NCBI RefSeq assembly: GCF_026210795.1
Contig: NC_089432.1
Span: 62,001-126,000 of the forward strand
DNA: 64,000 nt
From: Rhizophagus irregularis
Lineage: Eukaryota
Reading direction: 5' to 3'
Part shown: in pieces, positions 2,028 through 54,899 of the stretch
Layout: the number at the start of each line of letters is the position of its first letter
How positions within the stretch are numbered: position 1 is the stretch's first letter
Position numbers and translations under genes: made by a program
The notes under the pieces: generated by a model
Told to the model about the DNA's origin: nothing
Seen by the model: only the letters and a program-made list of their open reading frames with translations
Database searches by the model: none

Positions 2028-2487
2028 GTCGTCGGGCTGGATGTGGAAGGTGCAATCACCACCCACCTCCGGGTCTACGACCCGTCAAAGTACCTATATG
2101 GCCACTACGGGGTTCAGGAATCCCCATATATCCTCTACAATCCTCCACATAGATCCTCCACAAAAATATATAACAAAAAAAGATAAAATAAGGGAAAAGA
2201 GAGGAAAATAAAAGGGAATCAGAAGAGTGTGGAGGATGTGGAGGATGTGGAGGATATTTTAAAAATATCGGGAGAGGGATTCCCCCAGAAAAAAGTTTTG
2301 ATTTTACCCCCCCAGATCCTTCACATCCAGAACATCTTCCACATGTACAGGATTCCGTCCGATCATCTGTATAAGCTAATGAGATAGCAAACCAGGTAGA
2401 TTAACAGGTAAACCCCTAGAAGGTCTATAGACCAACCCCGTCCCGCCCCCATCAGAAAAAATAAGTAATTGAACAATGGGTATACCA
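2028..2487 (+). repeat. Left TIR of element A
   Basis: Reverse complement of 16695-17156; begins GTCGTCGGGCTGGATGTGG. Confidence 0.95.
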
Positions 2488-2497
2488 TAAGTAACCT

Positions 2498-2872
2498 ATA
2501 AGGACAGATAACATATATACCCCGCACGCAGTATCAGTAATCCCCGAACTTGTAGGCCATATCCTGAAACACATTCCAAGTAGCAATTTCGGGCCATATC
2601 TTTTAAAAGTCAGCCCAATCTGGAAAGCCGAAGCTAAACGAGTACTCTGGAAGCGGCATAAAAAAGCTGAGGAGGCATACGACAGGGCAGTAGAAAAGAA
2701 GGAAAAAGCAAATGATGCTCTTGGCCAATCATTGGATGAGGAGGGTATCCTCCGTGAACTTGAATGGGAGGCATATCAAAAGGCTTGTAAAGAGTTAACG
2801 GACACTAGAAAAGAGCTAACTATAGTAAAAGGAGCTCTTGAGCGGTTTGGATTTCAGATATATGTAGTTTGA
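2498..2872 (+). pseudogene. F-box-like plus coiled-coil ORF (no ATG; ATA at 2498)
   Basis: Open frame reads VIPELVGHILKHIPSSNFGPYLLKVSPIWKAEAKRVLW..., an F-box-like pattern; TGA at 2870-2872; absent from the ORF track. Confidence 0.5.
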
Positions 2873-3093
2873 AAAAAAGGAAGGGAAGATTTAGAGCAGT
2901 CGTAAAGGTTCGTGGTTTATAGTTTTTTTTTTTACCCCTAGAAGATAACCAGATATAACCGGAGGACCGCAGAATCGCAGGACCACAGGACTACAGGAGG
3001 ATAACCTGGTAGGAGTGCAGATCTTTGGAAAAAATATTCGGCAATTGAAGATTAGGTAACTATAAATTAGTACTCGATTTGATAGAACAAAAA

Positions 3094-5655
3094 ATGACTG
3101 CCCAAACTAGCACTCAAGCTCAAGTTATCCCCAAGTTTGGTGAACAGAAGAAGGCTTTTAGTATTGATGAGCTTAAACGGCTCATTAACGCTGCAAAGAA
3201 TATGAGGGATCTCAATCAAGCTAAAGGTTATCTTTGCAGTTACTTTATCCCCTGTTCCAACCCGCATGGAGTCTTCATGTGGCGGTCAGAAATTAAAAAC
3301 CTCGAGCACATCCCTGATAAAAATATTAGTAAACTTATCCGTCCAATTACCAAAGTCTTTTACACACAATCTGAACAAGGTCCTTCACAAAAGGTTGAAT
3401 TTAATATCAACAAATGGTTTATGATCGAATATAGTACTGTATGTGTAGCTACCTGTGACCCTCAAAAATCCCGTATCTTTAAACTAGGTGGCCAACTTTA
3501 TCTCAATATCTTTCCAGAATTCCTCCATATCCTGCGTCCGATATCCACTTTTGAATCTACAACCTACCTCGCGGTTAAATTTATCTTCTCTCACATTCAG
3601 GATATCTGGTGTTCAGGCGATTGGAATCTTACTGAGTATATCATAAAGTGGTTGGCCGGTGTGGCAGCTAAAAGGAAAATGTATTCGATTCTCTACCTGA
3701 AATCTGGACAGGGTTGGGGTAAGAGTATTATAACAGATTTCATTCAACGTAGTGTCTTAGGTACTCAACTTGTTTATAAGACCAGCGATCCTCAAACGAT
3801 TCTTGGAAGTTTCAATGGGCAATTACAAGGTAAGGTTCTTCTCCTCCTCGAGGAAATGCCTACAGAAAAAAGCCAGTGGAATAATCTGTATCGATCGTTG
3901 AAGGATAAGGTAACAGGTGACATAATGGAAATCCATGAAAAATACAAGACGCCAACACATTACAAAAACTTTATATCCACCATTGTACTCACTAATGAAA
4001 ATGCTCTCAGAGTGGAGAATGACGATAGGTGCACAGTGTTCTTGGATGTGTCACCATCCCGCAAGGGAGACCTCAACTACTTTAAGAAACTCAGTGACGC
4101 TATGAAATATCCAGGCGCCAGTGAGGCATTCTATGCTTACTTGAGAGCCATTGCAGACGCTTACCCGGACTTCAATGGGAATCCACCACCTATAACAATA
4201 TCTAAGTAGGATCACATCATATCAACTCTCCCACCCCTATTTCAATTCATAAAGGACACTTACCTCATAGTAAAAAATCATATAACCGACTTACCTGTTC
4301 AAGAATTTTATAGGGTATATACTTCATACTGTAAAACTCATTGCATTTCACCTCTATCAAAGATCAATGCATCCAGAATCCTATCAAATGAGCTAAGTAT
4401 AAAAAGTAAAAAAATACGTATAGGTAAAACAACACCACAAGTTTACAGTATATCTAGGGAGGATCTATACAAGAAGTTTCTTGGCAAAAACTGGATACAT
4501 GAAACAGATGAAATTGATATAGAAGGAATTGATATAGATACTCCTGAGAAGCCCACATCTGATCCAAATGCCTTGGTGAAGTTCTTGGCAAATATATATA
4601 ATCCAACTAGTAAATCGCAAGTAGATCAAGAGGAAGTGGAGCTAGTTGTTGAGAAACCTGTTGAAGAAAAACCTACTGAAGAGCAACCAGTTGCCAAAAA
4701 GGCTCCTCCACCAGTACCACCTAAACCTGATTGCTTGAAGGTAAAACCTGCACCTGTCATCAAAGAGGATCCTATTCCTGAGGAATCTCCAGCTCCCATA
4801 GAGTCAGATACTGATGAAATTATAGACAGTTTCTCAGACTGTTATCTATCTGATGAGGAACCCGATCAAGAAAATGAGCCGCCTGCTGAGGAACCTGCAT
4901 TTGAAGCTGATGATGACTACGACGTTTTAGATGACTTGCTATCTGACTCAGATCCTACAACTGCAGACCAAGTTCCTGAGCAACAACCCGAGTCTCCTGC
5001 AGAATCTTCTGCAAAATCTGAATCTCTCGCAGATTCCAAATCTTCTACAGAACCTGTAGTAGAACTGACTCTCAAAGAGCAACCTATCCCAGAACCCGAC
5101 ACAGAACTAGAAGTCGACCGGGATCCTGAACCAAAGGAAGGTACTCGAGCACACTGGGCTTGGCATGAAAGGCGCCGATGGGATCGTAAGCCATGGGTCA
5201 AGAATTCAAAGGACCAGGTCTTCAATGATCTCTACAATACAGGTAAGGATTTATGGGCTAAGTACTAAGACGCGTCAGACGAGTATGACTGGGAAATACT
5301 CGCGTTTGAAGTAGAGGAATGTCCCACAACACGTATTGAGGACAAGTACCAGTACTACTTTAGGGAGGTAGTAGACTACTTCAAGGACTGGATCGAATAT
5401 AATGGGAACTCACCTAAAACACCTAGCCGTAAAGAACTCGCAAATCTAATAAGAGTATACAAGGAGAATCGTGATGCCGAGATTATCCCTACTACCTCTG
5501 GTTATGAAACTATGAAGATGAATAAAGGTAAGGCACGAGAAATCCCAGAGGAACGTCCAAAAACTGATATGGAACGTGAATGGGAGGCCGCCAATGGAAT
5601 CATCGATGACTGGAACAAAGAGGATACTGAGGGCGCTATCAACGACATATTGTAA
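3094..5655 (+). pseudogene. SF3/D5-like helicase with winged-helix-like region and long acidic Pro-rich tail; two in-frame stops
   Basis: Walker A SGQGWGKS, Walker B LLLEE, motif C IVLTNEN, DDR; frame continues through TAG 4207 and TAA 5266 into ORF 4573-5268 and on to TAA 5653. Confidence 0.85.
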
Positions 5656-5745
5656 GCGCTATTTCAGATTATTTCTTTTTTTTTTCATATATATATAGAA
5701 AGATATTATTTATAGTTGAAGACAAATCATATACAGTACATAAAA

Positions 5746-7673
5746 ATGCAATACTCAAGAATCGCCCGCACTTTACCAATACGACCTGACATCAAGGAAC
5801 TTCAGTATTCCGGTGCCCGCTTTTCCAGAGGAGCTATCGCCAGACTCTGGTCAGACTCTCCAGCGCGCACGAGATAGAAAGCTTCCAGATCCTACTTCCC
5901 TATGAAAACTGGAAACCGTGGATGGACATCAGTAAACCAACCAGCCAGCCTCTTCTCACTCTTGGACCACTACGATGAAGCACAACTACCAGATGATGCA
6001 GATCCTGATTACTTTGAACGATTCATAATTTATGTGAGAGATGCTCCACCGGTTGCAGGGGATGCAATGGGGAGCTAAATGATTGCCTGTATGAATGCCT
6101 GAAGCATATCTATGGTATATTCTCTAAAATACCCGTACTATAAAAAAGCCTGAATATATCAAAAAGGCATTAGGTCTCAATCGTGATGCTCAGTTCCAGT
6201 CTCATATATGGATAAGGTTGAACAACTTGCAGGAAGCCTTGCACTTAATATTGTAGGGGATTCCACTCGAATTTCCAAGAGCAAATCTGACAGACATGCA
6301 ACCCTCATCCTGTCCGAGGCCACTACTCTCTTGCACTGAATCCTGGAAGACTTCACCCCTAGTAAATTAGATAGAAAACAAAAGTCTCCCTTTGTTTATC
6401 GTGAAGATGGGGTTAATAATGTAGTAACAATATACAATGGTAAGACAGTTAAGTCTCTTACAGTTGGACAGTTTCAGAAAGGTAAGAAGCTCTGATAGTT
6501 ACTCCTTCATCCTATTGAGAAGAATCGTAAAACTGGAATATATGAAACACTTGAGGAAACATACCAGAGGATCCATGAAGAGCGGGATTCCTTTCTACAG
6601 GCTACAAAGAAGTTCGGCTCCAGGAATCGACTTATCTTATCACAACTGGTCGTACAAGAGAACTGCTCTCTGGCTTTTTGAACGGTTTAGTGTAGGAGTT
6701 CCAGCTAATGATCCTCTTGATCCAGTCGAAGCAGAGTGGATAAGTGATGCGAATGATGGGAGGTCTTATCTGGGCAGATAATGAATGGAAGGGCTATGGA
6801 AGACAATACGACGTGACAAGTTTGTATCCAAGTATTCGGCAATCGAATGCTAACTTTCCAATCCAACAAGGTAAGTTTCAAATACTCAAAGACTTTGTAG
6901 ACCACAGAGGTTATGCCTTGTATGGATTATTTCGTGCTAAGGTAAGTGGTAATGACATTCTCTTCCGACAGAATAAGAGGGGAGTTTATACATTCATTGA
7001 CTTACAACAAGCAAAGAAACTTGGTCTTGATATACAGTTAATCCAGGATGGAAAGCCAAATGCCTTGATATATGACAGAGAAGCAAGAATTCCTGGGACT
7101 GTAATATTTGGTGAGTATGTTCACTTTCTCTTCAATATAAAGAACCAGGGTGGCGTGGCTGGTCGTGTTGCAAAGAGAGTTCTCAATACATTATGGGGAG
7201 CACTCTGCCAGGAGGAAACGCAATTACAAGACACTCACCACAGATCAAACAGATCCATTCAAGTTTCCGGAAGGCCACACACTTGACTCCATCATACCAG
7301 TAGGATCTGACCAGTGGCGATTCCAATTCACAAACCCAGGTAGTCCCTTCAAGCGAGAAATCCTCCCGGATTGCTCCATTCTTATTAAGACACATGGACG
7401 GAAGATGACTTCAGAGTTATTAGAACCATATAGGATAAAGGACGACGCATCCATACAGATGGATTTATTCTAGAGTAACAGCCGAGTAGTCCTACACTTA
7501 TCACTTGTCCAGAAAATGCATACAAAGCATTGAAAGCTCTCAAGTTTGAAACCGCAGGATACTGCCATGTAAAAAATGCAAACAAGGTTATCTGGACAGC
7601 GATTGGCAAGAATGCAGTTGGATTTACAGTAGGTATATATATTTTTTCTGCTTCGAATGTAAAGTCAATTTGA
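5746..7673 (+). pseudogene. Short protein-primed family B DNA polymerase, frameshifted
   Basis: MGG..YDVTSLYPS (motif A), AKRVLNTLWG (motif B), RIHTDGFI at 7446-7469 (motif C); N-terminal NDCLYECL...HYSL; several frameshifts. Confidence 0.85.
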
Positions 7674-7716
7674 AGATTCCTATTTATTACAAAGTACAAA
7701 AAAGTATAAGGAATCA

Positions 7717-8185
7717 TGTCAACATATACCGAATTAGCAAGCATTATTAACCGCACTGACAGCATTAGTGATGAAGTTATTTATGATGCATCACGCAATC
7801 AGTTCACCATTGTCTCGACGAAACTGTCCTCAAGATTATCCGTGCATTAAAAGACACTATAGTAGTCGCATTAGTATCTGGGTTTAGCAAAACCAGCTAC
7901 CTTGTCCAGGATCATGTGAAGTATATCAAGAGAATCCAGACAGCAAAGTCTCCTGTATCATATGTGAAGTTCGTGGCCAGAAAACTCTTCCCAGATAATG
8001 CAGCATATACTGCTAAGATAGCAAAGATTCGTGAATCATACAAGAATAAACAAGCTCTTTTAGACAAACTTGAGGCCCTCTTCGAGTTGTATTATAATGT
8101 AACTAAGGACTCATTAACAGGTCCCCCAAAGCGAGCTGTCACTATGAATGAGGCTGAGAAAACCTTAGCAGAACTTCTTGTATAA
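7717..8185 (+). pseudogene. Small helical protein similar to element B ORF 43649-44026; one frameshift
   Basis: KYIKRIQTAKSPVSYVKFVARKLFPDNAAY...LLDKLEALFELYYNVTKD aligns by eye with QRIIKLRQAEEPENFVLETAQSILPNETKY...LLSAINKLYRLYYELAKD. Confidence 0.65.
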
Positions 8186-8279
8186 GCGGCTCCCCGTACG
8201 AATTTAGTTTATATTTTTTATCCATTTGTAATGGGCATACAGTAATTGAAGATGGCTATAGTATAAGTAACATAACATC

Positions 8280-8700
8280 ATGTTGGACCGATTACCAGTA
8301 GAAATAGTCGAACGCATTGTTGCAAAGATCCCAGATACTGACCTTATTGCAGCGAAAGTAAAGTAGATAGATGTGTGGTGGCGGGGAGGTTCGTCAAGAA
8401 ATATAAGAGATGGAAAAATTACGCTACTACAATTGGGCATGTCCAAGCTCTTGGAAAGCCGTTTGAAAAAAGGAATATTGACTGGATATCATTTGAAGAT
8501 GTAAACGACTTCTATAAAAGATGGATAGACCGCCTCACCGAGGATCAGCTTTATATTATGGAGAAAATGCTTAGGAATGGGATGGTTGTGGACACCCCCA
8601 GGAAAGGGAAACCATAGAGCATGCATTAAGTGAACATAGATGGGGAGGCGATCCTTGGAGATTGGACTGGAAGTGGAATGATTGGACTCAACAGGAGTAA
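8280..8700 (+). pseudogene. F-box-like protein, frameshifted
   Basis: ATG 8280 gives MLDRLPVEIVERIVAKIPDTDLIAA.KV..VWW, an F-box pattern; continues into ORF 8375-8617; 3' end approximate. Confidence 0.6.
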
Positions 8701-9017
8701 GCATTTTGTACTTGACTTTCGTAGGAATTACCCTGCAGAGTCATATTTTTTAGATCCGGCCGGCATTACCGCGTAATCCCGAATTACCGAAAAAGGAAAT
8801 TTATGTTACACAAGGTTCCAAACGCATTCTTACCAAATCGATTTTTTGTGGAACGGGTATCGCCCAAAAAGGAAATGATCTACGTACCGCATGAAATCAC
8901 GTGACACTCTACACATTTGTTCAGGGTATCACGTGACATGAACTCCGTTCACATTTTCTGTAATATAATCCATAGTTTTTCCATGAATGCATTCTAGGCC
9001 AATAACCCAGTAACTTA

Positions 9018-9170
9018 TTTATCAGGTATCCTTGCATTTTTTCGACAAGGATTGATGACCATGTAACCTTATCATCAGGTATCCTTGCATTTTTTATAAG
9101 GACTGATGACCATGTAACCTCATCATCAGGTATTCTTGTATTTTTTGATAAGGACTGATGACCATGTCAC
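9018..9170. repeat. Three ~54-bp tandem repeats upstream of ORF 9230
   Basis: ATCAGGTATCCTTGCATTTTT...AAGGA(C/T)TGATGACCATGT x3. Confidence 0.85.
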
Positions 9171-9229
9171 TTGGTTATTATAAATTGAAGAAAACTATTA
9201 GGTATGTAGACACATACAGAAAAAAAGAC

Positions 9230-9811
9230 ATGTCTTACCCTTATATAGCTAACCCTATAACTGGACGTCCAATTATTATCGGTGGAGATACCTTTAATCG
9301 AATAGTTATGGAATCCCATGATTATATTGATGGAAGGCTTGTCCGTAGACAAACTGTACCTCCACCTGAAGAGCAACCTGTATATTTAAATACAGATACA
9401 GGACGTTATGTTCGACGTGGTACTAGAACATATCATAGACTGATTGAGAGTGACTATGAGGTAGTTGAGGATTACTACCTTGTCCATTATGAAGAAGAGG
9501 CGCTTATAGAGGAAATCATCAATGAAACACGCTATAATGAGGAAAATCTTGATGGGCAGCGGTTAACTTTCAATGATATATAACAAATCAGGGCCGCTAT
9601 TCAGGCTGACCAAGATGAATATGATGATTTTATCTTACAGCAAGATACGACTAACGGGACACCTTCCTCTGGTCCTTCCGGTCATCCACGAACTTTGGAG
9701 GACCATACCCCGAGACTTGCAGAGCTTAATATTGAGTTGTGTAGGGAATGTCTCATGCCTGTAAGTCCAAGTGACTTAACGGACAAGTTGTGCAAAGACT
9801 GCTCCGAATAG
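9230..9811 (+). pseudogene. Protein with two NPxTGR-type (2-cysteine-adaptor-like) repeats and a C-terminal CxxC...CxxC
   Basis: IANPITGRPIIIGGDTFNRI and LNTDTGRYVRRGTRTYHRL; after TAA 9581 and a frameshift reads LCRECL...LCKDCSE*. Confidence 0.55.
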
Positions 9812-9856
9812 TTACTTAATTTTGAATAATTCTTTTTTACATAAAGAAAGATAGCC

Positions 9857-10276
9857 ATGTCAACATCAATTGTAATAAACCAGTGCCAAAACTATGGAGT
9901 AATCACTCCAAAAACAGCACATAGAGGATTATCCAGTGTATTATACAGACAGATTATAAAGAAGATTAGTGATGAGAATGACCCTCTACAAGCCTTGGGA
10001 CTTGCTAGGGATAAGTTAGTTTAGATCATTCGTCGGGCAAGTAATGTGGACTTTACACAATTGTTTACACAAAGACTGGATATGAAAATTATGGATGGAG
10101 AGCCATATGAAGATATTAGGAAGTGGCTTCTCGAACAGTTTATAGCTATAGGTTGTGATAGTGGAGAAATTGCCTTATATCAATTTCTAAGGGATACATA
10201 TCCAGATAATATCGACGAGCCTTTCAATACATTCTATGAGAACTATGTAAATCATATAAGTAATTCAACGACTTAA
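9857..10276 (+). pseudogene. Hypothetical protein with one internal stop
   Basis: ATG 9857 is in frame with ORF 10046-10276; internal TAG near 10022. Confidence 0.45.
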
Positions 10277-10403
10277 GAACTTCGCTTAACGTCGTGCCAG
10301 GAGGAAATAGGGTTGAAGGCTAAGATGTTAAGGATTGACTTTGAAGGCCGTAAAAAAAGTGCTATGATTCTTAGAGCTTCTGCAGACGAATTATTTGATA
10401 TTC

Positions 10404-10826
10404 TCACAAGATACTATTAATCCCTACTTGTAATGCTCGACGGTCCATGTGGCTCTTAGAAAAGATCTGTAGAAGGACTTCAATACCTTCTATTATTTTT
10501 TTATTATCCAGAGGGCGACTAGACTTCAGGGCTTCATATCGGGAGAATAACTCCTTCACATTCTCAGTTTTCAGAGTTTCAGTCTTTGCAGTCCTACCCT
10601 GTACTTTTGCTAAGAAGTCCTGAAAGTCAGCTCCTAGGGTTTTACCAGACAGTCCATAAGCTTCCCGAAAGACAAATTTAATCCAGGTATCTGTATTCTT
10701 GGCTAAGACACCAGGTACAAGTAAATGTTGACGCTCTTTAGGGGATGGAAATACCCAAGCAAATTCAATCAAGTGTCCACCTTTTTTTGCTTCAGATACA
10801 CTTTCTGGCCAGGGGTAGGGACCCAA
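10404..10826 (-). CDS. Hypothetical protein downstream of the ATPase; probably disrupted
   Basis: 140-aa ORF inside element A, co-oriented with the ATPase, preceded by 10-bp tandem repeats. Confidence 0.4.
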   Translation of the reverse strand: MGPYPWPESVSEAKKGGHLIEFAWVFPSPKERQHLLVPGVLAKNTDTWIKFVFREAYGLSGKTLGADFQDFLAKVQGRTAKTETLKTENVKELFSRYEALKSSRPLDNKKIIEGIEVLLQIFSKSHMDRRALQVGINSIL

Positions 10827-10829
10827 ACT

Positions 10830-10955
10830 TGGATCGAACTGCGATTGAACTGGGTTCAGACTGAGATCGAACTGGGTTCAAACTTGGATCAAACTGAGAT
10901 TGAACTGAGATTGAACTAAGATTGAACTGAGATTGCTCTGTGATCGAACTGAGAC
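10830..10955. repeat. 10-bp tandem repeat (GATTGAACTG-like)
   Basis: About 12 degenerate copies of GAT(C/T)GAACTG(A/G). Confidence 0.8.
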
Positions 10956-11636
10956 TAGTATCCCATCTTCTTTCGAATGGACGGTGGATCACTTTTTAGA
11001 CCGTCCCCAAGATCAAACACTACAAATTCACGTTGCAAAGTAAGATCATCAATTACTGGTGCTAATGACTCTGATTCTTCTGTATATAGGCGAATGATTC
11101 TCTTAGTATCTGTAAGGCTCCCATGACCTCCATGCAGTGAGATGTAGTTAACATTTTCTCGAATAGCCTTAGGAATGGCAAAGAATCTTTGAGCTACATA
11201 AATACATAAAATATTTTTGTGTCGTCCATGTGTAAAGTAACCAGTGATGAGATCCTGGATTTTTTTAGGTGCATCCATCAGATTCTCGAAGATTACCACA
11301 GTAGCTTGAGTAGGGTCAAAGGAGTCAATCTCTGGAATCTCACTATGGGTTACTGCAGTGAATGGGATCTTCTCCTCTTCGAAAAAATCAGCGTACAACT
11401 GCCTACTTTGGCTCGTCAAGATATCTGCCAACTAAAAGTACTGCATCACATAGTACATACCGATTACCATCCTCCTTTGCCTTCTTGTCACCCATTAACA
11501 AGTTAATGATCATAGTTGTCTTACCTGAGTCTGAGCTACCTGCTACGGCTAATCGAAAGGGCCATGATGGAGCAAACTCATTGCCTTGTCTTGAGTCAGT
11601 CGTGTACTCGTCCAAATTGTATACATAAAGATCCAT
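10955..11636 (-). pseudogene. A32/FtsK-HerA-like DNA packaging ATPase; stop plus frameshift near 11400
   Basis: Walker A AGSSDSGKTT, Walker B VVIFEN(L), FTHGRHKNI, YVAQRFFAIPKAIREN. Confidence 0.88.
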
Positions 11637-11667
11637 TTGAATTTTATTCTTACTTAGTTTAAATACT

Positions 11668-14435
11668 ATGTCGACATCAACACCAATTCCAGTTTATACT
11701 CCTTCAGAACCTACTGGACCGCCTCCTGCACACTTGGCTAATGAAGAAGACGATGATGAATTAGTTAGAATACTAAAGGCTCATGCAAATTTATTGACTA
11801 CCAGGGGTCGTTTAACTGTTGATTCAGAGATACAGGAGGCAAATAATCAAATCAAACATATTATTAATATATTAATGTATCGCTGTAAAGCAAAACATGA
11901 AGAACTTGGTATTACAAAAGATTTGTTAGTTTTTGCACAAGGTAAGATAAATGCATTTGATGAAACGTTTACTAATTTAGAACGTCAATTAGTTATTATA
12001 CGTGCTGCCAATGATAATTTCATAGAAGAAAACCATAACCTGCAAAGAGATTATGATACTATGGTAGAGCTTCGTCGACGGGCTATAGGTGAACGTAATC
12101 AGGCACGATATGAACGTAATGTATTACAAGCAGATTATACTCAAGCAGTAATGGATCGTAATGAGACTCAAAATGCTGTGAATCGTGGTAATATCCTTCT
12201 AAATCATTGGCGGCTAAGGCTACTCGGACTGGGGGACAACTTGTATTGGCTAATGCGCAACTTGGACAGGTTAATGCACAGCTAGCACATGCTAATAATA
12301 GGGTGCGTTTTGGAATTCAGACATTAGGGAGACTTAGGAATAGACTTTTCCAACAGATAGCTGCTCTTAGAATTCAGGTACAATGGTTTCGAATTAGACA
12401 ATTGAACCCTCCTCCACCTCTTTTAAACAATCCACTAGAGACAATATGGCTACCACTGCGATAGGATTGCCGATTTTTGAGGGTAAAGCTACTGATGATA
12501 TTGATACATTTGTTAGGCTTTATATGGGTTATCTTGATACTATTAATCTTAACCCATATGCTGCTGGAGGGCCACCAGAGTTTTGGAAAAGAGCTATGGG
12601 TATACTTAAAAGCTGCATGGCCGGTGAAGCAGCTGAATGGTTTGATCGAGAAATTACAGGAAAAAATTGGGAACTTTCTGGTATCACTTCAGCTGGTGGA
12701 GCTAATTTAGCTGCTTTTGTAGCATTAGTGATACCAGAAGGTGTAGGAGGACCGAATGTAGGTACCTATGTAAATGGGTCTGAAGCACAAATCTATTCAA
12801 GAGATCCAGTTAATGCATTAGTAACTATTAGAGCAGCATTTATTCCTACTCATGATTTAATGGGTGGAGATGAAGCTTGGAAAAGAGCTGGTGCTCGTCC
12901 CACGGCAGATAGAGCTGCTCCGGCTACTGCAGATGCTGGTGTTGCTGTTAATAATAATCATCCTATAGTTTTTCCAGGTATTAAACCTAATCAGGCGCTT
13001 TATTGGCTTAGAACACAATTTCCAACTGTTTTAGATGAAAAGAAACGTATCCGTTTTAACAGTCTTTACCAGGAAAATGAGCCAGTTGATGCATTTTATA
13101 GAACTGTAAAGAGGGCTGGAAAATTACTAAGACTAACTGATGATCTTATTATCGACCAGTTCTTTAGAGGTCTTTCGGCTGATAATATTTTTGAAGCAGA
13201 AAGGTTTCACAATCTTAATCCTGATGACTTGGTTAAACATCTGAGAAATTTAGAACGGAGAAGGGCTGAAATGCGCTTGGGGTTACAAGATAGAAATCGG
13301 CGACTTCGAGCAGATTACAGTGATGTAACTCAACCTCCATTAGGAAAACAGGAACCTGTCGTACTGACATCAAAGTCATCTGGGGTTACTCAAGAACAAT
13401 TACAAGAGTTGCTTAAGGCTCAGGCTGAAGAACTTACCAAGAATTTTCAGGTGCAATTTAAACAATTACAGGCTCGGCCAGTTTGTAATCCACCAGTCTA
13501 TAGACAGCAGATTAAACCTTTTCGACAAAAACCATAGAGACGTGTTATTCAGGATCATCAGGATCCTGATTGGGATGATGGTTATGTAGAACCTGATGTT
13601 GGTGATGACCCTGATGCTCCTGAGTGGACTTTGGATGATCATCAACATGCTATTGATCTTATTATGGGATATAAACGTGGGACGTCTAAAATACTTACAA
13701 ATCAACTTCAGAAGGCTAAAGATAGACGTGATGATCTGGATTTGGCCCGAGCAATGAGAAACCTCGATCTTAACGATGATGCTATGGACATTGATACTGT
13801 GAGTTTTGGTTAAAGATGGTCATCAGTCCTAAAAGACCACGATCTCGCGGTCCTACACCTTAAAAAGACGGACCGGTCCGTCTTGATGTAGTACCGTGGT
13901 CTTTCGGTCCTGTAACACGTACAATAAGACCGACGGTCTTTTTAAGGACTGCAGTCTTTTTAAGACCGATCAGTCTTTTTTCCTTTTTCTGCAAATAAAA
14001 AATTTTCTATTACTTTACTAGGAACAGTCTTCCTTTATAAATGAACACTAATTGTATAAATTTATAGGAACCATTCCAGACGTATATTATAAGCAAATAA
14101 CATGTATAAAGACGGATTTACTATACTTTATTAACGTTAATTTTCTTTTTTTCCTTGGAGACAGGGAGACAGTCTTTTCTAAAAGTTTCAATATGCATGT
14201 AATAACTTTTATATAAAGACCGATACAAAGACCAGGCCAGTCTCAGGACCGGTCCTACTGCGCCAAGAAAAAATGAAAGACCGCGGTCCGGTCCTACAAG
14301 TCCTGGGACCGACCGGTCCAGAACCGAGTAGGACCTGTAGGACCGATGACCATCTTTAGTTTTGGTGAAAAGGTAGAATTGAGAGAAAAAGATGGTGATG
14401 TCTATATGGTTCGTGTTAGGTCAAAAAAAAAGTAG
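11668..14435 (+). pseudogene. gag: Gag-like polyprotein (coiled coil + retrotransposon capsid-like domain), with two frameshifts, a stop and a MITE insertion
   Basis: LPIFEG..DDIDTF, MAGEAAEWF, MHR-like LYQENEPVDAFYRTV...IIDQFFRGL, AMDID; frame resumes after the MITE (FG/EKVEL...RSKKK*). Confidence 0.8.
13811..14358. mobile_element. hAT-like MITE inserted in the element A gag
   Basis: TIR TAAAGATGGTCATC(A/G)GTCCT; exact 8-bp TSD GTTTTGGT (13803-13810, 14359-14366); GGACC/GGTCC subterminal repeats. Confidence 0.92.
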
Positions 14436-15172
14436 GTTCGAGTATCTCAAAACTTCTTAAGTCGTCTCCAAATAAGACAGCAGTTAGCTCTTCTAGTGTA
14501 CCCTTGAAAGGCAAAGCAACTTCTGTTAAGATTCCTGTAAAAGTTACTGGTAGTAAGTCTACACCTGCAAAAGCTGTTACTAAGAATGACTTATTAAGCC
14601 TGTTAAGGTCTGCAGACTTTAGGAAATTACTCTGTGAGATTCTTCAGGAGGAGATGATGTCTGCTAGAAAAGTCACAGAGATTTCAGATGACTTAGCTGA
14701 GGAGGAACAAGAAGAGGATATCAGGGAATACGATCCTATGGATATTGATATAGCTCGTTTGGAGAATACTAAAGATCTTTTAGCACTGGATGGAGAGGTT
14801 AATGGGATAGCAATTCAGTGTTTAGCAGACACTTGTGCTAATGCGTCTTTTATTCAGAGAGAAGCTGCTGAGGAATTAGGGTTGAATATCGACAAGAGTA
14901 TTACATACAACATATCTGGTGCTCCAGGAACAGGTAGGACATTCGGCATGGTAAAGGGAGTGTCAATCAAACTTACCCCTGATTATGCTATCACTGAGGA
15001 TCTTGCAGTTTTAGATGGATACAAGCATAGGGAAATTGGATTGAGCCGGACGTGTCTGAAACGTTACAATTATGATGTCCATGAATCACGTGAACATGTC
15101 GCCCTTACCTGTGATGGGAAGAATATTTTTATCCCGATAGTTCCTGATGTGAATAGAGAAGACAAAAAATAA
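14423..15172 (+). CDS. Retropepsin-like aspartic protease in the -1 frame of gag
   Basis: EVNGIAIQCLADTCANASFIQREAAEELGL, ISGAPG flap, IGLSRTCL; frame open from the A9 run at 14423. Confidence 0.8.
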   Translation, partial: KKKVGSSISKLLKSSPNKTAVSSSSVPLKGKATSVKIPVKVTGSKSTPAKAVTKNDLLSLLRSADFRKLLCEILQEEMMSARKVTEISDDLAEEEQEEDIREYDPMDIDIARLENTKDLLALDGEVNGIAIQCLADTCANASFIQREAAEELGLNIDKSITYNISGAPGTGRTFGMVKGVSIKLTPDYAITEDLAVLDGYKHREIGLSRTCLKRYNYDVHESREHVALTCDGKNIFIPIVPDVNREDKK

Positions 15173-15197
15173 GACCCTTTAATTCTTCTATTTTTTT

Positions 15198-16289
15198 TTA
15201 TTTCCAAAATTTGCGAATTAAGTCAGGGATATCTTCCTTCAATTGGTCAGCAGGTTCCCAAGTGGCTTCTGTATCTGGGTATCGCTCCCACTTAACCAAA
15301 TACTGGTCTTGACCTTTTCTAATGCGATGCCGAAGTATCTGCTCAGGTACAAATCTTTCAGGTTGTCCTCTTATCACAGAGTCAAGTGGAGGCTTTTCAT
15401 TAATAGGAACTACTTGCAATTCCTTTCGGGTATATGCACATTTGGATACACCTAATCGACCATGTGGTCCATTAAGGAGATATGTAGGAGGCTGTTCAGG
15501 TGAGAGTATCATTTTTTTGATTACACGAATGTTTGGGTTCCATCTTATGTCTCCTGTACAGAATTTTCCGTGAAGTTTGTTACCAAGTACAGAAATAGGT
15601 TCATCTAACTTGACTCTGACACGTGTTCCTTCAGAGAGGAGGTCTGTCTTTTTTGACACTTTGGGTGACCCTGTCGGAATGTCTGGGGGATTTCTCTGCT
15701 AGAGTTCATTTACTTTACTCACTATATTATGGAAATCTTCTGACCATTCCACGGATGTCACCCCAGTTTTCAACTCCTGTGCTACCATTCGTTTAAGAAG
15801 GGGTTCTTGGATGGCTTGGATAGCTCTTTCAGCATAAGATTGCTGTTTATGCCTTCCTGGTTCGCCGAACCTCATCATTACCCCTAGGCTGTTCAGGAAA
15901 AAATCACGTACCTGGTCGTTAGTGAATTCTGATCCGGAGTCCGTCTCCAGTCGGTGTGTTGGAGGCTTGATACGATTTCTTTTGTAGATTTTGACAAACC
16001 CGTTTAGAACTCTATTTGCAGTCTTATCCTTTAGGGGTTCTGCATCGACTCTCTTTCCTGCAACTTCCACCACTACGAGAAAATAGTGGAATCCTTTGGG
16101 GTCAACTGGCATCTCTGCAAGATCTGCCTGATGTGTTGCATTTGGTTTCCATACAATTACCTTTGGGCGTTCTGTTGACTTTTCCTTTAGGGGCTTTTTG
16201 TATAGGTTGTAATGCTCTTCACCTTTTAAAATTCGTACTGGTACTCTGGATAGACTGTAGTACTTGTAGTAATTCTCTAATTGTGACAT
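15198..16289 (-). pseudogene. Retroviral-type (rve) DDE integrase with C-terminal chromodomain; one in-frame TAG
   Basis: HQADL, ETDSGSEF, AERAIQ; ORFs 15699-16325 and 15198-15659 are in frame; chromodomain PEQILRHR...YLVKWERYPDTEATWEP. Confidence 0.92.
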
Positions 16290-16333
16290 ATTACGACAAA
16301 TTAAAGGAAAGATTTCAGACTTCAAATCTCAAG

Positions 16334-16654
16334 ATGTCACGATTTTACTGTCTAAAGTGCAAGAAGGAAACTGAGACTGCTAGTGAAATACAAGATATGA
16401 CTACAAATGGGCGTTATCGGCTGCATGGTGACTGCACAATTTGTGGTATGCATAAGAATACTTTTACTGGAATAGACTGGGTGATCAAGAAGAAGACTAA
16501 GGAGAAAAAGAAAGAAACCGCTGCTAAGAGACAGCAGACAGCTTACAATCGGCAATGCAAAAAACTTGGACAGAAAATCATAGATTCTGATGACGCGTGT
16601 AAACAGTGTATTGATAAATGCCTTAAAGAGGCAAAAAAGAGGAAGACGGATTAG
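16334..16654 (+). CDS. Small zinc-ribbon protein (DUF5679-like)
   Basis: MSRFYCLKCKKET...TTNGRYRLHGDCTICGMHK. Confidence 0.65.
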   Translation: MSRFYCLKCKKETETASEIQDMTTNGRYRLHGDCTICGMHKNTFTGIDWVIKKKTKEKKKETAAKRQQTAYNRQCKKLGQKIIDSDDACKQCIDKCLKEAKKRKTD

Positions 16655-16694
16655 TACTACCTTCTAAAAGTATTCTTTATCATCTGAATCATCT

Positions 16695-17156
16695 TGGTAT
16701 ACCCATTGTTCAATTACTTATTTTTTCTGATGGGGGCGGGACGGGGTTGGTCTATAGACCTTCTAGGGGTTTACCTGTTAATCTACCTGGTTTGCTATCT
16801 CATTAGCTTATACAGATGATCAGACGGAATCCTGTACATGTGGAAGATGTTCTGGATGTGAAGGATCTGGGGGGGTAAAATCAAAACTTTTTTCTGGGGG
16901 AATCCCTCTCCCGATATTTTTAAAATATCCTCCACATCCTCCACATCCTCCACACTCTTCTGATTCCCTCTTATTTTCCTCTCTTTTCCCTTATTTTATC
17001 TTTTTTTGTTATATATTTTTGTGGAGGATCTATGTGGAGGATTGTGGAGGATATATGGGGGATTCCTGAGCCCCGTAGGGGTCGCTATAGGTCTTGCGAC
17101 GGGTCGTAGACCCGGAGGTGAGTGGTGCTTGCACCTCCCACATCCAGCCCGACGAC
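16695..17156 (-). repeat. Right TIR of element A
   Basis: Reverse complement of 2028-2487; ends CCAGCCCGACGAC. Confidence 0.95.
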
Positions 17157-42735: not shown

Positions 42736-43416
42736 AGTAGGACAATCTTGGGGGTTCTGGGACAGCGGCTATCACATAGGTCTACCATAATTTAGTGTAC
42801 CCCCAGACCACCTAGCCTTGTTTTCTGATATGATAACACTATACCTGTTTTTCTATCCCCAGACCACCTAACCTTGATTCCCGATATGTTATTACTTGAT
42901 AGCTAAAAAGAACCCCCTAAGCGTTATAGATAAGATTAACATCATTTATTCCTAGGCATTATTACCACGCATGAATCCATTCCAGGGTATCATAATTTTA
43001 TGCTATATCAGATTGCCTTTATAAGTGCCAAAGGTATGAAGGACACGAAGTGTCTGTAATACCGATGGCACGATTCAGCAATCCATTGTGGCATACTATT
43101 TTTATGATACTCTAAAAGGGATTCATTCGATGATTTAAGCCATTCATGCTCTAACCAAAAATGTATAGCAGGAAGGCAACTAGACATATTGTAAAGCTTT
43201 CCCTGCTATACGAAAAAATCTGGGACAGTGAAGTCTAACCAAAAATCTGACCCAGGCTTCAACCAAAAATGTATAGCAGGAAGGCAACTAGATATGTTTT
43301 AAAGCTTTTCCTCCTATACGAAAAATTCTGGGACAATGAAGTCTAACCAAAATTTAACCCTAATCATAAATTGCTCTGATTCTTTGACGAAGCCTATTTT
43401 CATACCGATTTTGATA
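42736..43416 (+). repeat. Left TIR of element B
   Basis: Reverse complement of 59033-59715; contains internal direct repeats. Confidence 0.95.
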
Positions 43417-43596
43417 ATAACTCCCAATATGAGATTGACATCGACCACTAGATGAACCTGTAGGTTTACCACATACAGCACAAGGAAAGCGTGATTTTGT
43501 CTTCCAATGAATGCGACAACCTTCTGGCCTCACACAAGGACGACCACAAGGCTTGCCTGTGTTATGTAAATATTCACAAGTATATTCTCCAATCAT
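43360..43596 (-). CDS. Small Cys/His zinc-binding protein whose 3' end lies inside the TIR
   Basis: MIGEYTCEY...KPCGRPC..PEGCRIH...CAVCGKP...RCQSH. Confidence 0.6.
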   Translation of the reverse strand: MIGEYTCEYLHNTGKPCGRPCVRPEGCRIHWKTKSRFPCAVCGKPTGSSSGRCQSHIGSYYQNRYENRLRQRIRAIYD

Positions 43597-43648
43597 TTTT
43601 ATTAAGTATAAATAAGTTAAATTAAAAAAAAGTTTACATGATATAAAA

Positions 43649-44026
43649 ATGATGTCTACCCAAGCTATACCAGCTAAGCCAACATACCGTGAAATTGAAT
43701 CAGCTCTAATTGCTGTAATTAAAGCAGGCATCCTTTACAAGAAACCAAAGGATGGTAAATTCATGTTATGTTACAAACAAAGGATAATCAAATTGCGTCA
43801 AGCAGAAGAACCAGAAAATTTTGTTCTTGAAACAGCACAATCTATTCTACCTAATGAGACAAAGTATCAGCAAATCTTGGAAAATTATAAGACCTGGTAT
43901 AGCAGAGAGCCAAAACTTTTGTCTGCTATTAATAAGCTATACAGGTTATACTATGAATTGGCAAAAGACTACTTCCTCACAGACTCCCAAGCAGATGATG
44001 AGGTAGAAGACTATCTTAATTCATAA
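43649..44026 (+). CDS. Small helical protein shared with element A
   Basis: Intact 125-aa ORF; by-eye similarity to 7717-8185. Confidence 0.7.
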   Translation: MMSTQAIPAKPTYREIESALIAVIKAGILYKKPKDGKFMLCYKQRIIKLRQAEEPENFVLETAQSILPNETKYQQILENYKTWYSREPKLLSAINKLYRLYYELAKDYFLTDSQADDEVEDYLNS

Positions 44027-45125
44027 GTACCCATTGTGGTGGAAGTTCTGTATCATCTGGTATAACCAAAAGTTCTTCCCTCACAAAGGATCTCTCTGAT
44101 TCTTTACCATCATCATCAATAAGCCAGTACAAAACTGGTTGATTTTTCTGTGTTAAAGACATATGGATATGATAAATCTTAGGTGACCAATTCATATCTC
44201 CTGCTCGACGTCTTCCACCTTCCAGATCATTTGGTTCAAGTAAGTACCTTACACTTATATTAGGTGGTAGTTTCTCTTCTTCATACCCAACAGGTCCATC
44301 ACGAGGATAAGAAGATCTGGAAGACACTCGTGATTTTTTTATAGCTATAGCAGGAGATATACCAAGTTGTTGGGTCACTGAGTTATTTATACTTTCTACA
44401 GCAATAGGTAAGTTTTTTACCCAGACTCGAGATCTCGTTTTACCTAAAGTTAGTAAGTCAGATGCATCTTGAGAGGGAAATAGTTTCTCAACCAAGGTAC
44501 GATTATATCGCTCCACAATGCCAACAGTACGCTTAGACTTGGCCTTTTGAATCTTTACACCATGGGAAGTCATCAGCTTTTCACACTCACCTTTAAACTC
44601 TGAACCCCTATCTGTAATCAATAATTTTGGCCAAGTGAGCGGACATGTTGTATCATCATATACCTTTTCAAAAGCCCGAGCAATAGTATGAGAAGTTAGG
44701 ATTCCCTGTCGATTTTTAACACTGGTTGAACCTATAGGAACACTTTCTTTATACCTCGATGCTATATCAACTATATTGAGACAGAAAAGATAAGTCACAT
44801 GTCCAACCTTGTCATATGGCATATACAAAATGTCAGCTTGATGAACTTCATTGGGAACTTGTATAGAACTAAAACTTACACGAGAGATAAATCGGGGACG
44901 AGGTTTGTGGACTTGATGTACTGCCTGTCTTTCAAGCCAATCCTGCACTTCATCTAAGGTGAAATCATATCCAGCATTTTGTGATGTCTCATACAACTTT
45001 TTGGCAGTCCTCTGATATCCAGATGGTTGGTAGAATATCCTGCATAAAGCCGAAGTCACCTCTACATTTCGTGCTTCATCAGAATCTATTGGAATAATAG
45101 GAATCAATGGGAGTTGAACAGGCAT
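44016..45125 (-). CDS. Polinton-type rve integrase, intact, no chromodomain
   Basis: FYQPSGY..KKLY...VQDWLERQAVHQVHKP, HQADI, ITDRGSEF, VERYNRTL, NWSPKIY...FVREEL; ATG at 45125. Confidence 0.93.
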   Translation of the reverse strand: MPVQLPLIPIIPIDSDEARNVEVTSALCRIFYQPSGYQRTAKKLYETSQNAGYDFTLDEVQDWLERQAVHQVHKPRPRFISRVSFSSIQVPNEVHQADILYMPYDKVGHVTYLFCLNIVDIASRYKESVPIGSTSVKNRQGILTSHTIARAFEKVYDDTTCPLTWPKLLITDRGSEFKGECEKLMTSHGVKIQKAKSKRTVGIVERYNRTLVEKLFPSQDASDLLTLGKTRSRVWVKNLPIAVESINNSVTQQLGISPAIAIKKSRVSSRSSYPRDGPVGYEEEKLPPNISVRYLLEPNDLEGGRRRAGDMNWSPKIYHIHMSLTQKNQPVLYWLIDDDGKESERSFVREELLVIPDDTELPPQWVLMN

Positions 45126-47191
45126 ATCTTGATTTGTTAAATAGCAACTTTGATTTGCGCAAACAGCTAGTTCAAGAGGAAACAAATAATATTTCCAATA
45201 AGGAGAAAATCCGTAAACTCACAAAGGAGATAGAGGCATGTGAACGATATATCTTCTATCTTGAAAAAAATCTTGTTTCACGTGAGGATGAAATCGATCG
45301 GTTAAAGGCAGAGTGTCAGTCCACTTTAGTTGAACTTGGAAAGTATCGAGATCACTTAGAGTTAAAGGAAGAGGCACTTGTTGCCCAGGATGAACGTATC
45401 ATTCAGCTTGAAGACACAGTAGATAAACTCAAAAAACGCATTCAAGAATTATCTTTATGTAAAGGAAAGATAGAAATGGATGAAGATAATGAATTATTCA
45501 ATCCTATTCTAAGAATACTAGACCGCCGACGGGCAGTTGCAGATTGTGTGTCTGAGATTAGACTATTTTTTGATCGGAATAGGATTCCAATTCCACAAGA
45601 CATAGATGATGTCTTTAATGCTACACTCAAAGTCTTGATGAAATTATTCGTCAAGCTGCTCTAATGCAAGAAATTGGTGTAGACCAACTAAATCAGATAG
45701 AAGGATTGCAGACATTACTTGGAGAATCTTTAGATCGTACAAATACTCTTAATCAAGACTTAATAAGAGTACGTGATGATTTTACATATGAGAGAAATGC
45801 TCGTAGACACTGGGAAACTATTGCACAACAGAATCAAGCACGTATTGCAGGAATACAAATAGCCAATCTAGGTATACGTTTTCTGAATAGACGCAAAGAT
45901 GCACAACTGGCAAACCAACAGAATCAGCTGGTAAATCAACAGAATCAGATAGCAAACCAACAGAATCAGATAGCTGAGCATAGAAGGAATGCACACAAGC
46001 TGATGTTACGCTATAATGCTGATACAGAACGTTGGAGAAGAAGGCATGCAGGTTGTATACGTCAGGCACAAAACTGGCAAAGACAATATAGGATTTCACA
46101 GACCCAGGTACAAGCACAGGCCCAAAATATTTTAAATTTACAACAACAAATATTAGCGTTACAAAACAATCCTCCAAACATGGCTACAATACAAGATGTC
46201 ATGCATACTATATCACCAGGTCTTGCACAGTTACCATTTTATGATGGACAAGAGCCGCCAGACTCTTATTATCAAAAGCTTAGAGCTGTCAATGAGATGG
46301 CTCGTCCACTAGCTTTTGCTGGTTTTAATGCTGCTATGAGATGCAGTGTTATGAAAAATAAAATGTCTGGTAGATTTATTCCTATTCCAGCAAATAATCC
46401 ATATAATGCCAATGCTGCTATTAATACAGAACCAGAGTTTCTAAACTGGCTGCAAGGAAAATATAGAGATGTGATGGTTGGAACAAATCAAGGTGCTATA
46501 ATAGCACTCATGAATGAATCATTTTCTTCTATAGATACACCAGATACATATGCAAAAAGGATTCGATCATTAGCACAAGGACAAGTATATGCTGAAATTT
46601 TACCTTATCTATATAATCATTTGCCTGATGTTTTAGAAATGAGAGTTAGAATTGCTGCTCCTGCTGATCTTGATGCTTTCTTTAATGAGTTACGTAATAA
46701 ATGGTATGAAAGTGGAGGGCGAAAAAATCCAACCACTATAGTAGAACAACCACAGAATAGAACTGCATTAGAAAAGCTTGCAGATATAGCAGTACGTCTT
46801 GGCTATACTGGTGACATAACAAATCCCTGTAGCAATACATACTTTCATTGAGAGTGATCTTACCAGAAAGTTAGGTGGACAAACACAACATCTAAGAAGA
46901 GATCACTTCGGAACTGGTCAGGTTAAAAAGGTGACAAAGACAACCAAATCTTCTCCTAAACGTCATTGCTCAAACTGTGGTAGAACAGGTCATTCCAAGA
47001 ACAAGTGTTCACGGAGTAGATGTACTAAGAAAGTTAACAATACTCACATAGTTGACTATGAAGAATCTGAAAGTGATGAGGAAACTGATGAAGAAACTGA
47101 GGAAGAGTTAACTGAAGAAGAGGAGGAGGAGGATGAACCTCAGAATTGCTTTAGTGTAAAAAAAAAACTTGTCGACGTGGAGTTTTGGTAA
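45107..47191 (+). pseudogene. gag: Gag-like polyprotein (coiled coil, capsid-like domain, CCHC zinc knuckle, acidic tail); two 1-nt frameshifts
   Basis: LPFYDGQEPPDSYYQKL, WLQGKY, DTPDTYAKRI...HLP..LEMRV, CSNCGRTGHSKNKC (CX2CX4HX4C); frameshifts near 45630 and 46830. Confidence 0.8.
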
Positions 47192-48099
47192 AAAACAAAG
47201 GGAAGAAATCCCGTACTTCCAAATCTAAAAGAGAACCTATTCTCAAGAAAACTGATGAAGTCTTTCATGCAGCACTGAAGTCTATAATTGCTTCACTAGC
47301 AGCACAATGTCCTAAAGAAATCCTCCTACAGATTAATGCTTATACCAATCAAGCATATGAGAATCTGAAAGACCCGCTTTTAAATCATTTTGTTAGTGAC
47401 TATCCAGTTAGTGAAAGAAAGAAACTCTGGGATGTTCTTTCAGCAAATATGCAAGACATTTTATCTCCTTTGGTTCATATTGTTAATACTACAATAACGC
47501 CGCTATTGCCAACTCCTCCTGTAGATGCGCCACCTGAAGTAGAACAAAAAGATGATAAAACATTGAATCATGCAATTCGTGCTTATCAGCAGAAAAACTT
47601 ATACTGGCCAAGACCCATAGAAATCAACTTTCTGCGGTTAGATGATCCCAATGATGTTGCGACCATTTCCTGTAAAATCAAAAATGTATGCATACCCTAT
47701 GCCATGATCGATACAGGGTCTGACTCCTCAGTAATCTCTGAAAATGTAGCTAAGCATCTAGGTCTCAAAATAGATCGGAAGAATGTGCATGCGCTTAATG
47801 GTGTAGCTGGATCAACCAAAACTCTTGGCACTATCAATGAGATCCCTATAACCATCGGAGAAGGAGAAAATTTGATCACCATTTCAGATGAATTTTCTGT
47901 CATACCTACTGAGAAGGATCGAAATGGTAAGGACAAATCATTGCTAATACTTGGTACACAGTGGCAGTATCGTGCAGGATGGGAACCGGTAGTAAAGGGA
48001 GAATTCAAAGCTAATGTGAATGGTAAGTCTATTTCCATTCCTCTTTCTGTTCACAAGGCTCAGCGAAATGTCTTTTCAGTTGAGGTTAAAAAAAACTAA
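47155..48099 (+). CDS. Retropepsin aspartic protease in the -1 frame of gag
   Basis: YAMIDTGSDSSVISENVAKHLGL, LNGVAG flap, LLILGTQW; frame opens after TAG 47152 just before the A10 run. Confidence 0.88.
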   Translation, partial: CKKKTCRRGVLVKNKGKKSRTSKSKREPILKKTDEVFHAALKSIIASLAAQCPKEILLQINAYTNQAYENLKDPLLNHFVSDYPVSERKKLWDVLSANMQDILSPLVHIVNTTITPLLPTPPVDAPPEVEQKDDKTLNHAIRAYQQKNLYWPRPIEINFLRLDDPNDVATISCKIKNVCIPYAMIDTGSDSSVISENVAKHLGLKIDRKNVHALNGVAGSTKTLGTINEIPITIGEGENLITISDEFSVIPTEKDRNGKDKSLLILGTQWQYRAGWEPVVKGEFKANVNGKSISIPLSVHKAQRNVFSVEVKKN

Positions 48100-54826: not shown

Positions 54827-54899
54827 TTTAACTACTGAGAAAAAAATATAATTTATTATTAATATATGCCTAAGTATCACTAAACTATTCTATATCATT

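Follow-up and report, generated by a model that had tools for sequence, protein, structure and literature searches.

We analyzed a stretch of 64,000 nucleotides from Rhizophagus irregularis (assembly GCF_026210795.1, contig NC_089432.1, positions 62,001 to 126,000 of the forward strand; hereafter the window, in which positions are counted from its first letter) and found in it a Polinton/Maverick-type element, element A, in which the gene for an A32/FtsK-family ATPase stands head-to-head with a Gag cassette of the retroelement type. The pairing of ATPase and Gag is real, conserved and under selection; its mechanism is what we infer below. The window is AT-rich, its proteins match named R. irregularis proteins with identities of up to 94-100%, and it holds two Polinton-type elements bounded by terminal inverted repeats (TIRs), A and its sister B. 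Element A has the long TIRs, the short target duplication (5 bp), the rve integrase, the family B DNA polymerase and the A32/FtsK-like ATPase of a Polinton, and we regard it with high confidence as a chimeric one. The general view is that a capsid fold and the machinery that packages the genome evolve together, the A32/FtsK motors with jelly-roll capsids, and the retroviral capsid protein (CA) with RNA co-assembly and reverse transcription. Element A, a DNA element lacking reverse transcriptase, joins parts of both modules, and selection keeps both.

A first-pass annotation of the window had placed the start codons of the two divergent genes at 11636 (minus strand) and 11668 (plus strand) with 31 nucleotides between them, and these positions were confirmed. 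The spacing itself is nothing special, given that it ranges from 31 to 78 nt in 43 relatives (median 51 nt, 77% AT). These relatives come from a scan of soil metagenomes with the ATPase, which yielded 53 loci (numbered with an L), 49 of them including the N-terminus of the ATPase. In tblastn searches with the CA of the window, CA was found head-to-head with the ATPase in all 20 loci having at least 1.5 kb upstream; several of these are near-copies, and we counted about 10 distinct lineages among them by eye. Profiles of CA or of ORF-N, the first open reading frame (ORF) of the cassette, matched in 45 of 45 loci having at least 300 nt upstream, the profiles having been built from these same loci. 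The ATPase accompanies two types of polymerase, a short one in L014 and L047 and a long, B-like one in L023 (together with CA) and L028. In the latter two loci, the polymerase linked to the ATPase carries an endonuclease VII domain (1176 aa in L028; A-type CA in L023), representing a swap of the replication module between families. We also observed an F-box ORF convergent with the ATPase gene and overlapping its end (L014, 6269-6790; similar in L008, L011, L017, L035 and L040), which is absent from A.

The assignment of the minus-strand gene to the A32/FtsK-like ATPases was borne out by its Walker A motif (GSSDSGKT), by the match of an intact relative's ATPase to Pox_A32 (E = 3e-9) and by the fold. 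However, the gene extends to 10404, past the 10955 given in the first-pass annotation, and the copy in A is broken, with a stop at 11405-11403 (after codon 77), frameshifts near 11390 and 10990, and a further stop near 10880. Its Walker B reads FEN, against FED in the relatives, and its set of motor motifs is not intact. Full-length ORFs of 393-421 aa were found in 20 relatives, all of which have Walker A, RH (which we take to be the arginine-finger region) and Q (presumably the Q sensor), while Walker B is present in 19 of the 20; the gene is intact in 18 of the 23 loci that span it. A model of the L002 ATPase (19 sequences; predicted local distance difference test, pLDDT, 72.8) has a motor domain (residues 1-225), a disordered, low-complexity linker and an all-helical C-terminal domain (C-domain, about 260-400). 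Compared with the BFVD, the model matched A32 packaging ATPases (E = 6e-8), and in the PDB it matched the FtsK/HerA clan, including STIV2 B204 (Z = 11.2).

With its extra domain, this ATPase of about 400 aa differs from most other matches, which have about 230-255 aa. The C-domain was found in 6 of 138 representatives. Four of these six were included in a quick tree of 56 rows (45 of 95 near-full-length representatives plus 11 loci), where they and the Gag-linked ATPases formed one clade (SH-like approximate likelihood ratio test, SH-aLRT, 98). No ESM Atlas match of at least 0.9 was obtained for the C-domain, and the fold searches with the whole model, which barely probed this domain, left it unmatched. 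Scans of IMG/VR with the ATPase, the A-type CA, the B-type CA and two sister ATPases gave no match.

Next, we consider selection. Neutral evolution of the ATPase, which the first-pass annotation had named as a finding against its proposal and had wished to see checked by the ratio of nonsynonymous to synonymous substitution rates (omega), is not what we found. In the codon model, omega was 0.089 over the 228 codons of the motor domain in 19 sequences and 0.144 over the C-domain, while CA had 0.160 in 17 sequences; when both genes were taken from an identical set of 11 loci, the values were 0.094 for the ATPase and 0.156 for CA. Pairwise medians by the Nei-Gojobori method (NG86) were 0.14 (57 usable of 190 pairs) and 0.29 (50 of 190) for the two parts of the ATPase and 0.47 for CA (110 of 136); ORF-N, which aligned poorly, had 0.71 (64 of 190). 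ATPase identity to L002 is 52-61% in most pairs. Thus, the ATPase is under strong purifying selection, and we have hardly any doubt that it is functional in the A lineage.

On the other side of the spacer, the ATG at 11668 had been taken as the start of a Gag ORF. It opens ORF-N, and the ATG of CA lies at 12446; the term Gag nevertheless fits the cassette, because the first 115 residues of ORF-N match the N-terminal coiled coil of the B-type Gag (hhalign probability 97.8, E = 1e-12), a type of match that coiled coils can also give spuriously. ORF-N has 162-441 aa in 20 relatives. In all 27 relative loci with a CA start, this start is ATGG. ORF-N ends 16 or 19 nt past it in 20 of them and 26 nt before it in two, while ORF-N is broken in four and uncalled in one; in none of the 26 loci with an ORF-N call is it in frame with CA. 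The overlap of 16-19 nt between the ORF-N stop and the CA ATG (window 12398-12464) follows a proline-rich run. This conservation suggests coupled translation or a separate CA transcript. Two other ways of joining the ORFs were rejected. A -1 frameshift at the T-TTA-AAC of the window would be in the correct frame in just 2 of 27 relatives, and in five a stop codon precedes the CA ATG by 6 nt; this same stop speaks against the intron that the NCBI gene models place at the junction, where no splice joint was found among the reads of four partly read RNA runs.

The CA ORF has 437-487 aa in 11 complete relatives, with a predicted retroviral CA fold in about the first 290. We modelled the part at 12446-13534 (34 sequences, pLDDT 75.1) and obtained a two-domain CA fold with an insertion of about 110 residues in the N-terminal domain. 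In a VIA search of 48,161 chains, the top 33 rows were all CA of retroviruses or retrotransposons; the best row had Z = 9.5 (root-mean-square deviation 2.4 over 84 residues), murine leukemia virus CA had Z = 8.9 over 182 residues, and the first unrelated row had Z = 5.0. The matches listed by Foldseek were likewise all CA, and Retrotrans_gag matched L033 (E = 4e-5). An in-frame A-AAA-AAx heptamer is located at the end of the CA ORF in 11 of 11 complete relatives. Past it, the -1 frame codes for the protease and is open for 222-268 aa in nine relatives and up to the contig end in two. The active-site motif of this protease is D-T-C-A in A and L021, D-S-C-A in L046, D-S-A-S in L008, L011, L019 and L034, and D-S-G in L020, L033 and L038.

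The first-pass annotation had also named a double jelly-roll (DJR) capsid partner as a finding that would speak against its proposal. By sequence search, no such partner was seen in the TIR-bounded element or in its long relatives: among 100 ORFs of A, B, L014, L047, L028 and L033, no Pfam match to a jelly-roll capsid, a penton or an Ulp1/adenain protease was obtained, and no PHROGs match to a jelly-roll capsid or penton among 17 ORFs. The conserved ORFs left unassigned all have at most 200 aa. In place of an adenain, an aspartic protease is present. No reverse transcriptase or RNase H was matched by Pfam in the same 100 ORFs, and the ends of A are inverted repeats, not long terminal repeats (LTRs).

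Element B provides a comparison. Its Gag lies in three pieces in the window, but in homologs a single ORF of about 680 aa covers the coiled coil, the CA-like region and the knuckle. As the first-pass annotation had stated, A has no CCHC knuckle, and B has a knuckle and no ATPase. Translation of window 11601-15200 in all six frames showed no knuckle, and none was found among 103 A-type proteins, of which many are partial, or in 11 complete CA ORFs; element B has one canonical knuckle, and B-type proteins have it in 56 of 88 cases, or in 32 of the 43 that extend 140 residues past CA. The ATPase profile had no match in the window outside 10407-11693, and therefore B is without an ATPase. The profiles of the A-type and B-type CA did not match each other (probability 0.5), and a GTDB scan with the B-type Gag gave no match. 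The first-pass annotation had read these differences as two packaging strategies. The contrast of knuckle and ATPase holds at the family level for A; on the B side, the statement that B-type elements never have an ATPase is based on one element of the window plus one row in the literature. The claim of two strategies is limited by the sister ATPases, which could adjoin a jelly-roll gene or the Gag of a B-type element.

How might the motor and the cassette work together? We consider it probable that the ATPase is functionally tied to the Gag cassette. That it acts in encapsidation could, in our judgment, go either way. The likeliest reading, to which we give similarly even odds, is that the Gag-protease of a retroelement replaced a jelly-roll capsid and its cysteine protease, while the motor was retained and came to load DNA into the new shell. 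Somewhat more tentatively, we propose a hybrid virion module for the A-type elements, which would then be DNA viruses or transposons resembling viruses: a Varidnaviria A32 motor with a new C-domain would load the 15-kb double-stranded DNA into a shell of retroviral-fold CA. Pumping of the phage style into a preformed shell seems rather unlikely. In the proposed course of events, the ATPase and the cassette would be co-transcribed from the shared spacer, and CA, translated from a start codon of its own, would form the shell with no RNA as scaffold. Maturation of the shell would fall to the CA-protease fusion that frameshifting yields in minor amounts. Least certain are the last steps, in which a ring of the ATPase might dock on the shell, perhaps via the C-domain, the insertion in the CA N-terminal domain or the ORF-N coiled coil, and might drive in DNA capped by a terminal protein. 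In B-type elements, packaging may instead proceed by co-assembly through the knuckle, with single-stranded products of replication as a possible substrate.

DNA loading is supported by the known role of the A32 family, the strict linkage, the gained C-domain and the lost knuckle, and also by a computed fill of 0.48 for the 15.1-kb genome in a cavity of 20-nm radius, an assumed shell size. In addition, Polintons that have lost the major capsid protein (MCP) are reported often to have lost the ATPase and protease as well (PMC4028283), and therefore the retention of the ATPase in the A lineage is notable. However, several points weigh against DNA loading. No portal is known in CA lattices of the retroviral type. 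A cavity of 25 nm would be filled to 0.25 and would need no pump. Element B demonstrates that a Gag-bearing Polinton can exist without a motor. Because the ATPase was the bait, the linkage test covers the direction of Gag given ATPase, and all linked loci belong to one clade, so that common descent could account for the linkage. For 11 loci, quick trees of the ATPase and of CA, which carry no support values, disagree on the place of L027. The best Foldseek match of CA had E = 0.012, and none reached 0.001. Finally, coverage by poly(A) RNA was close to zero: when roughly 25% of the reads of each of four raw runs were searched at 85%, the ATPase had a mean depth of less than 1, and the depth over ORF-N and CA was mostly 0 (53-107 reads over 6.4 kb, mostly partial matches).

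Other explanations of the pairing were also considered. The ATPase could be functional but act on DNA outside the shell, separating, translocating or condensing linear genomes as FtsK and HerA do, while the Gag shell assembles by itself on DNA or RNA and the layout reflects co-expression. The solved structures that scored highest against the ATPase model, VirB4 (Z = 12.6) and HerA (Z = 11.4-11.5), are indeed non-packaging translocases, and the motor-less B and the disagreement of the trees at one locus would fit. However, the family nearest to it, Pox_A32, is known to act in the packaging of genomes (PMC4028283); the ATPase stays beside Gag while the polymerase type and the downstream accessory genes change; and the A-type CA lacks the usual nucleic-acid-binding knuckle. 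We therefore judge action outside the shell to be unlikely, albeit a serious alternative. It is less probable still that the Gag particle carries a protein-primed template or single-stranded DNA along with polymerase and integrase, copying taking place inside the shell, and that the ATPase remodels or loads nucleoprotein during co-assembly. In favour of it, the retroelement order of Gag, slippery site and protease is retained, and the knuckle of the B-type Gag is a binder of single strands. The bidnavirids (PMC11161782) pair a Polinton protein-primed family B polymerase (pPolB) with an unrelated capsid, a single-stranded genome and a virion-borne pPolB. However, polymerase and integrase are separate genes here and are not fused to Gag, so that the usual route into the particle is missing.

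We consider it improbable that the jelly-roll capsid of another Polinton or of an endogenous giant virus acts in trans as the shell that the ATPase fills with the element, with Gag having a separate role. Such a motor must match its capsid, no helper was seen in any locus, and a helper would leave the 20 of 20 Gag linkage and the gained C-domain unexplained, although there are sister ATPases of 240-257 aa that lack the C-domain, and a 1.5-Mb endogenous viral region is described for R. irregularis (PMC10640383). Lastly, the breakage of the window copy and the truncation of the gene in five of the 23 spanning loci might suggest that the ATPase is a neutral relic of a lost jelly-roll module, beside Gag only since Gag replaced the neighbouring capsid genes, but neutral decay is refuted by the omega of 0.089 together with the conserved motor motifs at such divergence (NG86 median 0.14), and Gag, integrase and helicase of the window copy are broken too, so that almost nothing is left of this explanation.

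Features of elements A and B in the window, with positions counted from its first letter
Feature	Position	Strand	Remarks
Element A	2028..17156		Complete 15.1-kb Polinton/Maverick-type insertion; TIRs and 5-bp target duplication GTACA at 2023-2027 and 17157-17161
Left TIR of A	2028..2487	+	366-nt core 99% complementary, plus 71-nt outer arm
D5-like superfamily 3 helicase	3049..5655	+	DUF5906 E = 3e-17; split by stops in A
Short family B (pPolB-type) polymerase, fragments	6428..7473	+	DNA_pol_B_2 E = 9e-7
Accessory ORF with 2-cysteine-adaptor-like motif	9152..9583	+	Occurs in several relatives
A32/FtsK-family ATPase gene	10404..11636	-	Broken in A; about 400 aa if intact
11-bp tandem repeat coding for the ATPase interdomain linker	10824..10966	-	Linker pLDDT <50 in L002 model
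Divergent spacer	11637..11667		AT-rich, 31 nt; putative shared promoter region
ORF-N, coiled-coil first ORF of cassette	11668..12464	+	Frameshift near 12216-12243 in A; ends 19 nt past CA ATG
CA ORF	12446..14435	+	Own ATG, frame differs from ORF-N; stop at 13535-13537 and insertion of a miniature inverted-repeat transposable element (MITE) in A
MITE-like insertion interrupting the tail of the CA ORF	13811..14358		14-bp inverted ends, 8-bp duplication
Retropepsin-type aspartic protease	14420..15172	+	Asp_protease_2 E = 7e-8
A-run slippery site before CA stop	14423..14435	+	Predicted -1 frameshift into protease
rve integrase with C-terminal chromodomain	15198..16328	-	PF00665 E = 1e-9; stop at 15699-15701 in A
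DUF5679 small ORF	16334..16654	+	Conserved beside integrase
Right TIR of A	16695..17156	-	Pairs with left TIR
Element B, sister Polinton	42736..59715		17.0 kb; AGTAG...CTACT ends, 5-bp duplication GATCC
B rve integrase	44016..45125	-	
B Gag	45107..47191	+	Coiled coil, CA-like region, CCHC knuckle near 46964-47011; three pieces in window
B aspartic protease	47155..48099	+	After A-run
B long pPolB-type polymerase with endonuclease VII domain	54900..58958	-	Stop at 57003-57005; related 1176-aa ORF in L028

The copy of A in the window is dead, and RNA reads skip 556 nt at the position of the MITE. The TIRs of A have about 460 bp, and the ends of A read GTC, unlike the AG ends of B. The helicase has 780 aa in L047, where it matches Pox_D5 and primase PHROGs, and a 200-aa accessory ORF gave a weak Pox_D5 lead (ESM Atlas, 0.87); the integrase has 363-364 aa in the relatives. 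The polymerase of A is predicted to be of the protein-primed family B type, PF03175 being above the cut-off in the fragment of A and in L047. In relatives, it has 624-628 aa (L014, 8629-10512; L047, 5311-7182; L035, 3408-5291, minus strand), with an N-terminal region, an OTU-like Cys/His pair and palm motifs, and no exonuclease motifs were seen by eye. This layout recalls the TP-vOTU-palm polymerase described for mavirus (PMC11161782). Other features of the window include AT-rich arrays with units of 115-150 bp (943-2026 and 17156-18074; 41207-42466; 32046-32615 and 36715-37064); A is inserted within one unit of such an array, and B lies just beyond another. The region 29419-37245 has 100-nt inverted ends (74%) and two ORFs without a clear Pfam match (33897-34568 and 35297-36604), and is possibly an older TIR transposon. 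A 432-aa ORF at 24675-25973 contains an OTT_1508-like deaminase domain (E = 4e-16). Long palindromic MITE-like repeats occur at 19588-20679, 23141-23684 and 62664-63200, the last two being of one family. As cargo, element B carries two ORFs with Crinkler N-terminal domains (48854-50354 and 53360-53737). Mavericks are listed among the recently expanded elements of R. irregularis (PMC8647823). Given this expansion and the Crinkler cargo in B, particles could also provide these fungi with a way of moving genes.

Finally, we compared element A with known systems. With Ty3/Gypsy elements and retroviruses, it shares the CA fold, matched by our model, a Gag followed by a frameshifted aspartic protease, and a chromodomain integrase. 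It differs from these and from the caulimoviruses in that no reverse transcriptase or RNase H was found in it and in that its ends are TIRs instead of LTRs. In caulimoviruses, the shell around the double-stranded DNA is Gag-like, and a gene immediately upstream of that for the coat protein codes for a separate virion protein with a coiled coil, a position like that of ORF-N. The DNA of both retroelements and caulimoviruses is made inside the shell from packaged RNA. We know of no ATPase in these groups, nor of an A32 ATPase in the Bidnaviridae, to which we return below. If the loading of a CA shell by a motor is true, A would contain the first motor-fed retroviral-type capsid and thus a categorically new virion module, and the motor-less, knuckle-bearing sister family would represent another packaging route in the same host.

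The features that we listed for A at the outset are common to Polintons/Mavericks (Polintoviricetes). Typical members also have a DJR MCP, a penton and an Ulp1/adenain protease, none of which was found in A by the searches above; a Gag CA and an aspartic protease are present instead. The A32 genes of Glomus/Rhizophagus group with Maverick-Polinton ATPases (bioRxiv 10.64898/2026.06.19.733378). Table S1 of PMC4028283 scores the Glomus element P_Gi1.2 as having an ATPase and lacking MCP, penton and protease, and P_Gi1.1 (Polinton-1_GI) as lacking all four. They come from the same host genus, and the gene scoring is like that of A for the former and that of B for the latter. However, they are smaller than A and B, at 11.0 and 12.0 kb, and the table has no Gag column. 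It is likely, judging from the descriptions in the table, that P_Gi1.2 and P_Gi1.1 correspond to A and B, and a Gag in place of the jelly-roll would explain why the Glomus Polintons were scored as capsid-less. Similarly, the Figure 5 legend of Starrett et al. 2021 (PMC8502044) describes a 'related element' with Matrix/Capsid/nucleocapsid (NC)/Pro labels and Gag/retropepsin; the NC label suggests a B-like element, and neither the legend nor section 3.4, which does not discuss the element, mentions a link between ATPase and Gag. We found no paper on such coupling in the open-licence PMC and bioRxiv literature. Thus, earlier authors have come across the elements and probably also their Gag; an ATPase-Gag module that is conserved and under selection did not turn up in this literature. 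In the Bidnaviridae (PMC11161782), a Polinton pPolB has already been joined to a capsid of unrelated origin, but they are derived from a parvovirus and have a single-stranded DNA genome and no Gag. After the bidnavirids, element A would therefore be the second case of capsid replacement in the Polinton lineage, and its CA, ORF-N, ATPase and protease make up a small system in which one can ask whether DNA can be loaded into a retroviral-type lattice that has already assembled.

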